NCBI GenBank assembly: GCA_016194905.1
Contig: JACQAP010000026.1
Coordinates: 28,418 to 92,417 of the forward strand
Reading direction: 5' to 3'
Length of the DNA stretch: 64,000 nt
Origin: Betaproteobacteria bacterium
GTDB taxonomy: Bacteria; Pseudomonadota; Gammaproteobacteria; Burkholderiales; JACQAP01
Shown here: positions 57,314 through 57,955 of the stretch, one piece after another
How positions within the stretch are numbered: the stretch's first letter is position 1
Layout of the letters: every line of letters begins with the position of its first letter
Program-made: the position numbers and the translations under genes
The notes under the pieces: model-generated
Told to the model about the DNA's origin: nothing
What the model saw: the letters and a program-made list of their open reading frames with translations, nothing else
The model's database searches: none

Positions 57314-57613
57314 TCAGTTCTTGACGCCGGGAGTCGGATCGATGGCGGCGGTCAGATGCGCACCGGAAATCTTTTCGCAGGTGCCCTTCGGCACATAGAT
57401 CCACGCTTCCGGGTCGCGGTCGCTGGTGACATGGCCGTGACACTGGTTCTTGCTGGTGGCGCAGTCGTTCTTGCTGGCCTTGATGATGCCGGCGCACTTC
57501 TCTTCCTTGCTGTGGTCGTTGTCGGCGGCCATCGATTGGGAGCCGAAGGCCAGCGCGCCGGCCGCGAACAGGCTGGCGAAGGTGCTGCGGATGATGCGAT
57601 CAGAGGTTTTCAT
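57314..57613 (-). CDS. DUF2282 4-Cys RiPP precursor (BufA1-like), orphan copy
   Basis: 99 aa from ATG 57613, with AAGGAG 5 nt upstream: [29 protein letters not shown]|[58 protein letters not shown]... Its Cys spacing (10-6-19) matches 52501..52791. Confidence 0.85.
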
Positions 57614-57700
57614 TGTTGCTCCTTTGCAGTTGGTGAATGAACGGGGCGTTGCAGCGCTCAACCGGGTTGATGTGCTGTTTCGTTCCGGCATAAAACGGAA

Positions 57701-57955
57701 TCAGCTGCGGCCGAGTTTTTCGACGCACGCCTTTTCGGTCATTTCGACGAAGCCTTTGCCCTTGCAGGCGTTGTGCCCCTTGCATTCGTTCATCGAGGTT
57801 TTGCACTGGCCGTGACCTTTGCAGGCATTCGCACCGAAACACTTGATCTGCACGCCCGATCCGCTTTCGTCGGCGGCCCCGACCAGGCCCGAAGCGAACA
57901 GCGAAGCGGCAGCGGCTGCGATCGCGAGTCCCGTCATCGACTTGCTCTTGTTCAT
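57701..57955 (-). CDS. 6-Cys CKG-repeat RiPP precursor (BufA2-like), orphan copy
   Basis: 84 aa from ATG 57955: [84 protein letters not shown]. It has a Sec signal. Its Cys spacing (5-5-6-5-12) and C-terminal GRS match 33850..34104. Confidence 0.8.

Follow-up and report, generated by a model that had tools for sequence, protein, structure and literature searches.

Bufferins (captophorins) are among the largest families of RiPPs (peptides made on the ribosome and modified after translation), and exploration of their biology has hardly gone past the core A-B-C-D operon. The closest described systems are the buf1ABCD and buf2ABCD clusters of Caulobacter vibrioides, which are both present in one genome and show co-regulation in response to copper stress (PMC11626156); operons of the same kind are the GIG operons described in Cupriavidus and Legionella (PMC5413113). 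According to a catalogue of precursors, "sizeable proportions" of both Buf1 and Buf2 are stand-alone, that is, unlinked to an MNIO, tandem precursor genes exist, about 16% of the Buf2 peptides are lipoproteins, and sigma/anti-sigma genes, of the NrsF type, are reported in Buf1 clusters only (PMC12452194). On the enzyme side, MNIOs of the Cys-Lys class carry an Asp beside the catalytic Asp, modelled against the substrate Lys of BufA2 (PMC13097082). In the DUF2282/BufA1 peptides, the outer pair of cysteines forms a disulfide and the inner pair is modified. Here, we analyze a stretch of 64,000 nucleotides (the window) from contig JACQAP010000026.1 of a Betaproteobacteria bacterium, which encodes, in addition to a Buf2-type bufferin cluster (locus A) and a Buf1-type cluster (locus B), two adjacent precursor genes, one from each family, denoted Buf2' and Buf1'. 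These two genes, with a probability of roughly 0.6, encode satellite bufferin precursors that lead a conserved island unit, are co-regulated with locus B and are each matured by the BufB/BufC pair of their own family.

57701..57955, minus strand: Buf2', soluble (SPase I-type) bufferin precursor of the BufA2 family, 84 amino acids (aa), with six Cys, four Cys-Lys dyads and two His
57314..57613, minus strand: Buf1', bufferin precursor of the DUF2282/BufA1 family, 99 aa, with four Cys and the His-rich variant motif C-HGH after CysIII

Against the NCBIfam model NF050166 ('BufA2 family periplasmic bufferin-type metallophore'), Buf2' scores 79.9 bits, above the cut-off of 60, and Buf1' matches Pfam DUF2282 (PF10048) with E 2e-21 and 76 bits (gathering cut-off 22.4). 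An earlier sequence-only reading of this region had described two minus-strand genes, each with a ribosome-binding site (RBS) and a Sec signal, and this description holds: both open reading frames (ORFs) are in place, with the RBS GAAGGGGAA located 7 nt 5' of the ATG of Buf2' and AAGGAG preceding Buf1'. The Sec-type signal peptides, as read from the sequence, both end in a small-x-small cleavage motif. That of Buf2' is 27 residues long, with a basic n-region, an Ala-rich h-region and a V-G-A/A cleavage motif followed by ADE as the first mature residues; that of Buf1' consists of 29 residues ending in GSQSMA, with an S-M-A/A motif before ADN, and its mature part includes KGTCEK.

33850..34104, minus strand: precursor of locus A, lipoprotein-type BufA2 (lipobox FITGC; NF050166 at 78.7 bits)
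32946..33788, minus strand: BufB (MNIO) of locus A (NF050167 at 392 bits, cut-off 310), Buf2-linked clade, Cys-Lys-type site ERDDH
32155..32949, minus strand: BufC (DUF2063) of locus A (PF09836, E 4e-20)
53723..54592, minus strand: BufB (MNIO/DUF692) of locus B (NF050167 at 398 bits, cut-off 310), Buf1-linked clade, site EWDTD
52906..53739, minus strand: BufC (DUF2063) of locus B (PF09836, E 3e-23)
52501..52791, minus strand: BufA1 (DUF2282) precursor of locus B, 96 aa, C-AGS after CysIII (PF10048, E 4e-21)
51953..52432, minus strand: DoxX (BufD) of locus B (PF07681, E 2e-18), also called as a gene in the related contig L081

The two peptides closely resemble the precursors of the two clusters. 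Buf2' shares 24 of 50 core residues, the C-terminal GRS and the Cys spacing 6,6,7,6,13 with the locus A precursor (34104-33850), and Buf1' shares 30 of 50 core residues and the Cys spacing 11,7,21 with the locus B precursor (52791-52501), in agreement with the earlier hand counts of about half and about 60%; over the full length, the BLASTP identities are 43% and 54%, respectively. Buf2' contains two His and the locus A peptide none; the seventh Cys of the latter is the lipidation site. Alignment of the Buf2 peptides resolves two subtypes, a soluble one (...AAD...KGKGFVxMTEKAC), which includes Buf2', and a lipoprotein one (...AGC...KGHGFVSLTEQAC), which includes the locus A peptide. Across 13 homologues, there is no change at C45, C51, C64 and C77 of Buf2' and almost none at C39; at C58, two homologues from mer islands carry a replacement. 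The latter (L092/L093 8001-8252, designated P0090, and P0106) are stand-alone soluble Buf2 homologues without the fourth core Cys (...SMSD-KGRNSC...), flanked by a MerR gene on each side, within a mercury-resistance/copper island (MerT, HMA, MerB, MerA, multicopper oxidase), a setting that suggests recruitment of bufferin-like peptides to mercury handling.

Downstream of the two precursor genes, the minus strand encodes a long series of co-oriented genes, in the order Buf2', Buf1', a GC-rich hairpin, an HbpS/GlcG-like protein, an SGL-like protein, a terminator, a 69-aa ORF, BufB, BufC, BufA1, DoxX, SDR, a tandem glyoxalase and a GMC oxidoreductase.

57277..57303, minus strand: GC-rich stem-loop directly 3' of the Buf1' stop codon, with an 11-bp stem in the window fold
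56719..57219, minus strand: HbpS/GlcG-like exported protein, 166 aa, with a signal peptide (PF03928, E 8e-30)
55094..56722, minus strand: SGL-like exported protein, 542 aa, SMP-30/gluconolactonase-like beta-propeller (PF08450, E 2e-37)
55034..55057, minus strand: intrinsic terminator (hairpin 55057-55042), GCCCGGCTTGCCGGGC followed by T8, at the end of the Buf2'-Buf1'-HbpS-SGL unit
54594..54803, minus strand: 69-aa ORF, acidic, without Cys or signal peptide, preceded by a good RBS and with a stop codon 1 nt ahead of the BufB ATG

The arrangement is shared by related loci and contigs, most of them short, that are referred to here by L-numbers. The order from Buf2' through the HbpS-SGL pair, the small ORF, BufB, BufC, BufA1, DoxX, SDR and glyoxalase to GMC is intact in three independent relatives, L083, L084 and L098, and the last two of these also retain the divergent argB neighbor. 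The layout with the satellite unit recurs in at least four relatives, so that the comparative check of pair conservation proposed in the sequence-only reading has a positive outcome. The Buf2' orthologues in L083, L084 and L098 are 90-92% identical, and altogether 228 homologues were found, mostly 83-84 aa long. The exact peptides are present in the Logan assemblies of SRR12113409/10, and the exact 69-aa ORF is found in an NCBI record of a Betaproteobacteria metagenome-assembled genome (MAG; locus tag HY067_17555). The two precursor genes have a synonymous divergence (dS) of about 0.5-0.9 from the orthologues. The ratio of nonsynonymous to synonymous substitutions (dN/dS) is 0.06-0.08 for Buf2', with an invariant core Cys block, and 0.12-0.23 for Buf1', compared with 0.07-0.13 for the HbpS-like protein, 0.13-0.21 for the SGL-like protein and 0.18-0.20 for BufB (MNIO). 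Given this range of 0.06-0.23, Buf2' and Buf1' are not pseudogenes.

The position of the enzyme genes qualifies the claim that no DUF692 or DUF2063 gene is adjacent to the pair. Indeed, none belongs to the same transcription unit: because of the terminator 55057-55042, Buf1' is separated from BufB, BufC and DoxX, and the HbpS-like gene, the SGL-like gene, this terminator and the 69-aa ORF all lie in between. However, going downstream from Buf1', the closest DUF692 gene (54592-53723), which has the same orientation, begins after only 2,721 nt, and BufB (of the Buf1 clade), BufC and DoxX lie at 2.7-5 kb, which makes them genetically associated with Buf1'. For Buf2', the class-matched enzyme pair is 24 kb away, and the pair at 2.7 kb belongs to the Buf1-linked clade. 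In PMC12452194, stand-alone precursors are those with no genetically associated MNIO; Buf1' does not belong among them, given the co-oriented MNIO, the conserved arrangement and the shared operator. Thus, the term "orphan" applied to these genes is apt insofar as they are located outside the enzyme operons and fails insofar as they form the first part of a conserved super-cluster, with a private operator motif in common with locus B, and as, in L141, both enzyme pairs directly flank the unit.

L141, a 113-kb soil contig, has DUF2063_A, MNIO_A and the gene for a lipoprotein Buf2 together on one strand; divergent from this A-type cluster are the soluble Buf2, Buf1', HbpS, SGL, MNIO_B, DUF2063_B, Buf1, DoxX, SDR, glyoxalase and GMC. 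By this comparison of gene orders, the window looks like a derivative of an L141-like island in which the A-type enzyme arm would have moved 24 kb off, leaving the soluble Buf2 behind. A further arrangement, in L088 (a Burkholderiales MAG), is Buf2sol-Buf2lipo-MNIO-DUF2063-PCuAC-PBP5-aminotransferase, syntenic with locus A of the window.

To gauge the frequency of the mixed-family pair, the gene directly downstream was scored for 94 Buf2 genes on 80 metagenomic contigs. It is an A-type MNIO in 22 cases, a B-type MNIO in none, another Buf2 in 4 and Buf1 in 5; in 49 cases there is no bufferin gene and in 14 the contig ends. Seven of the 49 have at least 3 kb of flanking sequence on both sides and no bufferin enzyme there. 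In all five Buf2-to-Buf1 cases, the Buf1 is of the Buf1' subtype and HbpS comes next wherever the contig continues. Counting the window, L004, L083, L084 and L098, the Buf2-to-Buf1' bicistron is found in about ten loci; it is rare overall and fixed in this betaproteobacterial group. The pairing of the two families, considered unusual in the sequence-only reading, is therefore uncommon in the survey (5/94) but a fixed, conserved trait of this lineage. In L004, the Buf2 gene 5' of Buf1' (8718-8933) is of the lipoprotein type and carries an in-frame 19-aa deletion between CKG repeats that leaves three core Cys, and a 27-aa Buf2 fragment (8402-8482) lies just upstream; this short Buf2 reflects either local decay or a shortened variant.

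The BufB proteins split into two clades that follow the family of the adjacent precursor, with about 50% identity between the clades. The Buf2-linked clade (window locus A, L001, L085, L088, L090) shows 65-90% identity within and the Buf1-linked clade (window locus B, L004, L005, L007, L083, L084) 63-80%; the BufB of locus A is 65-73% identical to MNIOs adjoining Buf2 genes elsewhere, compared with 53% to the BufB of locus B. The site beside the catalytic Asp reads ERDDH in the A-type BufB and EWD[T/S/I]D in the B-type. Among the surveyed Buf2 genes with an adjacent MNIO, the A-type is next in 22 of 22, and the Buf2' orthologues of L088 and L141 adjoin the A-type pair. Taken together, the BufB clades, the specificity residue, the four Cys-Lys dyads of Buf2' and the survey favor the locus A BufB/BufC as the predicted maturation enzymes for Buf2' and those of locus B for Buf1'. 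Because the genome encodes exactly one enzyme pair of each matching type, by clade and site, maturation in trans by the two pairs, as proposed in the sequence-only reading, is plausible. The cross-family tolerance also raised there is not needed to account for the data. In the side case of L148 (747-3532), Buf1-MNIO(B-type)-DUF2063-DoxX is directly followed by a soluble Buf2, and there is no A-type MNIO on this 4-kb contig; among the hints from outside the window that a Buf1-type enzyme set might serve a Buf2 peptide, this is the best.

The link of the satellite unit to locus B is reinforced by arrays of a direct repeat, which were first traced through 9-mers common to two upstream regions.

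58076..58114, minus strand: operator array 1, four 11-bp-phased direct repeats (CGTGATGAAAC, CGTGATTTTCG, GGTGATAAGGC, CGTGAG)
54899..54937, minus strand: operator array 2, CGTGAC...CGTGATCTTTG CGTGATCAACG (repeat units at 0, 22 and 33 nt), located upstream of BufB and the small ORF that precedes it
52872..52888, minus strand: operator array 3, CGTGAGACGTG followed by CGTGAT, upstream of BufA1 of locus B

Array 1 lies 121-159 nt 5' of the Buf2' ATG, inside the divergent argB/Buf2' intergenic region, and array 2 reads CGTGAC(N16)CGTGATCTTTG followed by CGTGAT. The pattern SGTGAK-N5-SGTGAK, which was defined on the very three sites counted, has 5 matches in the 64 kb compared with 0.21 expected from shuffles (0 of 100 shuffles reached 5). 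All five are on the minus strand, upstream of Buf2', the small ORF/BufB and BufA1, and a looser pattern adds no site. In the related loci, array 1 shows almost no variation in L083, L084 and L098, in contrast to its flanks, array 2 is conserved in L083, L084, L096, L098 and L141, and array 3 in L083, L096, L098 and L141; the CGTGAT motif is also found at equivalent positions in L001, L004, L113, L127, L128 and L141, against a background of about 6 matches in 1.4 Mb outside bufferin loci. Given that, within the 64 kb, the CGTGAT arrays occur only upstream of Buf2', BufB and BufA1, co-regulation of the unit with locus B is predicted. Direct repeats with an 11-bp period are typical of winged-helix response regulators of the OmpR/PhoB type, and the phasing of the CGTGAT repeats suggests a regulator of this kind. 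An OmpR-type response regulator (39750-40523) and a HAMP histidine kinase (38225-39724) are encoded on the minus strand of the window, and the former is only a candidate. A search for a common ECF-type promoter (5-mer/N15-18/4-mer) in the regions upstream of Buf2', Buf1', HbpS, the small ORF, Buf1B, DoxX, Buf2A, the sigma gene, PCuAC and others yielded one chance-level triple and no GAAC/TAAC-type pair, and the idea was dropped. Between array 1 and the Buf2' start lies an imperfect palindrome, GACGGGACTGAACCTGTC followed by TGTTTTCT (58034-58051, minus strand), flagged as terminator-like and conserved in L083, L084 and L098; it could be a leader/attenuator structure or part of a promoter.

Within the unit, the spacer between Buf2' and Buf1' is 87 nt long and devoid of significant structure (z = +0.2). 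A hairpin of differing sequence is found at the equal position after Buf1' in L083, where a U-tract follows, and in L084; it is likely a partial terminator or RNA stabilizer dividing the precursor genes from HbpS-SGL. The SGL-like gene overlaps the HbpS-like gene by 4 nt, and the alignment shows a hairpin with a T-run equivalent to the terminator after SGL in L083, L084, L096 and L098. This architecture would fit a precursor-rich bicistronic message with read-through into HbpS-SGL. An Rfam search of 51.8-58.4 kb at a permissive threshold gave no RNA family and hence no known riboswitch or leader.

What the sequences themselves establish is the identity, conservation and synteny of the genes, the CGTGAT motif, both hairpins, and the BufB clades with their differing site; from these we infer the expression of the unit, the assignment of enzymes to peptides, the chemistry, the metal and the regulator. 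A promoter under the control of array 1 would drive a joint transcript that runs from Buf2' and Buf1' through the hairpin to the HbpS-like and SGL-like genes and ends at the terminator. The unit would constitute the upstream arm of an extended bufferin island, with small ORF-BufB-BufC and BufA1-DoxX-... as the next units. Because the same CGTGAT array is found on all three, one common DNA-binding regulator probably switches them on, with metal (copper) stress as the likely trigger. Each precursor would then be modified in the cytoplasm by the BufB/BufC of its own family, which for Buf1' is the adjacent pair of locus B and for Buf2' the Cys-Lys-type pair of locus A at a distance of 24 kb, with Cys converted to 5-thiooxazole, and the modified peptides would be exported by Sec to serve as periplasmic metal buffers. 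In this way, two enzyme sets could yield four bufferins that differ in anchoring (lipoprotein or soluble) and in His content.

The HbpS-SGL pair itself extends far beyond bufferins. The earlier description of the downstream genes as GlcG-like and lactonase-like is borne out by the PF03928 and PF08450 matches; the PDB relatives of the former protein are HbpS, EfgA and NahX, and those of the latter are the gluconolactonases 3e5z and 3dr2. The N-terminal domain of the SGL-like protein (about 250 aa) has no usable match in a Pfam scan at E up to 5 or in a PDB sequence search. The SGL-like protein as a query returned 80 loci, of which about 77, from many phyla, retain the HbpS+SGL pair, and about 70 of the loci, in Acidobacteriota, Methylomirabilota and other phyla, lack any bufferin gene. 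The pair is often found near a GMC oxidoreductase, a tandem glyoxalase, a DoxX-NDH2 protein and an ECF sigma factor. This HbpS/SGL cluster (window 48535-57219; L002-L080) often also includes a second SGL and an SDR and is found in Acidobacteriota, Methylomirabilota, Chloroflexota and other phyla; within the window's copy of it, bufferin locus B occupies the interval between SGL and SDR. The window also encodes a 742-aa protein (40540-42768, minus strand) in which a DoxX membrane domain is fused to a pyridine nucleotide-disulfide oxidoreductase of the NDH-2 type, directly upstream of the response regulator and the histidine kinase, and fused or unfused homologues of this protein are found near HbpS-SGL clusters in other phyla. 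Judging from these gene neighborhoods, the bufferin island appears to be inserted into, or fused with, a widespread HbpS-SGL-oxidoreductase cluster.

The Buf1 peptides encoded next to HbpS form a subtype of their own. A Buf1 gene is located directly 5' of HbpS in loci of the Burkholderiales/Rhodocyclaceae type (L001, L003, L004, L005, L007 and L061) and about 1.1 kb upstream of it in L079, and wherever the contig of a related locus extends past Buf1', the next gene is HbpS-like. In Buf1 before HbpS, CysIII is followed by a His (C-HGH or C-HGS) in 16 of 16 related loci and in the window; in Buf1 before DoxX or MNIO, the motif is C-[A/S]G[S/T/Q], without His, in 8 of 8 related loci and in locus B of the window. 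The extra His ligands beside a modified Cys could signify a changed metal preference.

Several observations weigh against the proposal of co-regulated satellites matured by their own-family enzymes. The operator motif is absent from locus A under both the strict and the looser 64-kb pattern search; Buf2' is thus tied by the operator to locus B and not to locus A, so that, if the locus A enzymes serve Buf2', joint induction by separate routes is needed. The operator count is itself partly circular because the pattern was defined after seeing the sites, and independent support for it comes from the related loci only. The OmpR-type regulator and kinase have no close homologues beside the bufferin island in the related loci, and a scan of 51.8-58.3 kb for sigma-70-like promoters detected none. 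Furthermore, HbpS-SGL is conserved without bufferins, and the bufferin model therefore gives no reason for the pair to be part of the unit. The first of these points leads to the possibility that both satellites, including the Cys-Lys-type Buf2', are substrates of the locus B BufB/BufC, within one self-contained multi-substrate cluster with cross-family tolerance. The locus B enzymes are indeed only 2.7 kb away on the same strand, in a synteny that is strict in at least four relatives, and the soluble Buf2 of L148 comes right after a Buf1-type cluster on a contig without an A-type MNIO; moreover, the substrate-contact site of DUF2282-type MNIOs is little conserved and their specificity may be looser (PMC13097082). 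Nevertheless, a B-type MNIO directly follows Buf2 in 0 of 94 cases and an A-type in 22, the Asp by which Cys-Lys enzymes pair with the Lys of their substrate is missing from the locus B BufB, and an A-type MNIO is also kept in the window genome, L141 and L121, so that this arrangement seems rather unlikely.

In another reading, one or both peptides escape modification by MNIO and, once exported, act as Cys/His-rich partners, binding metal or redox-active, of the co-transcribed HbpS-like and SGL-like proteins; their function would then belong to that module and not to thiooxazole chemistry. The HbpS-adjacent Buf1 is a distinct His-bearing subtype (16 loci and the window, against 8 cluster-embedded cases), all four products of the unit carry export signals by sequence, seven Buf2 genes in the survey are truly stand-alone, with at least 3 kb of flanks and no bufferin enzyme, and, in PMC12452194, many precursors are unlinked to any MNIO. 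Yet the modifiable Cys and their spacing are strictly conserved, cognate enzyme pairs are encoded in the same genome and adjoin the unit in relatives, and bufferins are not needed by HbpS-SGL, which lacks them in the approximately 70 loci from other phyla; hence this possibility appears improbable, more so than maturation of both peptides by locus B. A joint alternative covers two deviations: either Buf2'-Buf1'-HbpS-SGL is a functional module in its own right, in which the His-bearing Buf1 and the Buf2 would work with, or be processed in the periplasm by, the HbpS-like and SGL-like proteins (for example, metal or haem might be handed over or stripped), or the neighboring Buf1-type BufB processes a Cys-Lys substrate across families. 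We consider this combination doubtful; if true, the module reading would link bufferins to the widespread HbpS-SGL-GMC oxidoreductase-glyoxalase-ECF sigma cluster. Finally, the two genes might be duplicated copies of the precursor genes of loci A and B that are silent or in decay, the outcome that would have undone the sequence-only reading. The L004 Buf2, with its 19-aa in-frame deletion (three Cys gone) and the nearby fragment, and the lack of detectable promoter-like hexamers point in that direction, and intact reading frames, RBSs and signal peptides, the purifying selection across diverged orthologues (dN/dS 0.06-0.23), 228 homologues of mostly 83-84 aa and the conserved upstream operator point the other way. 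Conservation and dN/dS rule out pseudogenes, and decay is largely refuted and highly improbable.

The gap between SGL and BufB is not empty, as might have been supposed, but contains the conserved 69-aa ORF, with the core ALLSLMxFYE...ESETELMVLLSGMV.VD and GE at the end, which is called as a gene in L081, L083, L084, L096 and L098 and evolves with dN/dS of 0.25-0.41. Among 5.8 billion proteins, just 24 homologues were found, which are confined to close relatives, and each homologue whose context was examined is located just upstream of a Buf1-clade MNIO; there is no Pfam match. This ORF could encode a lineage-specific accessory protein or an unrecognised substrate. In locus B, the order is BufB-BufC-BufA1-DoxX, with the precursor after the enzymes, as also in L083, L096, L098, L141 and L005, and one operator-bearing upstream region serves the enzyme genes while another serves the precursor; L007 and L148 keep the order A-B-C-D known from publications. 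Locus A, 24 kb away from the precursor pair, comprises an ECF sigma factor, a zf-HC2 anti-sigma factor, the lipoprotein-type Buf2, BufB and BufC, with a PCuAC copper chaperone on the opposite strand. The sigma factor and the 63-aa anti-sigma factor (34219-35104, minus strand) precede this Buf2-type cluster, and ECF sigma factors 43-46% identical to that of locus A, with zf-HC2 partners, are encoded ~5 kb from HbpS-SGL in many acidobacterial loci.

The locus amounts to a natural test of enzyme-substrate pairing, with four precursors, two enzyme pairs and one precursor located beside the "wrong" class. The phased CGTGAT candidate operator could reveal a bufferin regulator other than the SigF/NrsF of Caulobacter. 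The His after CysIII marks a Buf1 subtype linked to HbpS-like and SGL-like proteins and hints at another metal preference or a partner-dependent role. Finally, so-called stand-alone precursors can belong to conserved, regulon-level islands, which affects the counts of "orphan" precursors in genome mining.

The proposed division of labor follows the logic of the prochlorosin-type RiPP systems, where one modifying enzyme serves many scattered precursors in trans; the differences are the lanthipeptide synthetase chemistry, leader peptides in place of Sec signals and a far greater number of precursors. With the C. vibrioides buf1ABCD and buf2ABCD clusters, the window shares the two precursor families (BufA1/DUF2282 with 4 Cys and BufA2 with 6 Cys), the Sec signal peptides, the BufB, BufC and DoxX partners, the presence of both families in one genome and the expected role in copper stress (PMC11626156). 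To these clusters, the window adds two precursors outside the enzyme operons, one per family, in a single bicistron that is joined to HbpS-like and SGL-like genes. Unlike the A-B-C-D arrangement of C. vibrioides, locus B is organized as (small ORF)-B-C-A-D, with separate operator-bearing upstream regions, and, in place of SigF/NrsF, control is apparently exerted by the phased CGTGAT direct-repeat operator. The MNIO-unlinked, tandem and lipoprotein features catalogued in PMC12452194 are all seen in the window as well, and stand-alone and tandem precursors are already published there. In contrast, the accessible part of that catalogue does not describe a mixed Buf2+Buf1 tandem. In the window, HbpS-like/SGL-like flanks are strictly conserved beside a His-bearing Buf1 subtype, and locus A, although a Buf2 cluster, has an ECF sigma and a zf-HC2 anti-sigma factor. 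The two BufB proteins of the window fall into both MNIO classes, captophorin Cys-Lys and DUF2282, and differ at the reported site, and whereas the enzymes of PMC13097082 were tested with the adjacent precursor, the Cys-Lys substrate Buf2' is found 24 kb from the class-matched enzyme and beside the other class. Altogether, the precursor families, their enzymes and stand-alone or tandem precursors are already known, and the new elements are the mixed-family bicistron with its linkage to HbpS/SGL, the Buf1 subtype that bears a His and accompanies HbpS, the operator of CGTGAT repeats and, after a private small ORF, the order B-C-A-D, which extend and do not overturn the current understanding of bufferin systems.

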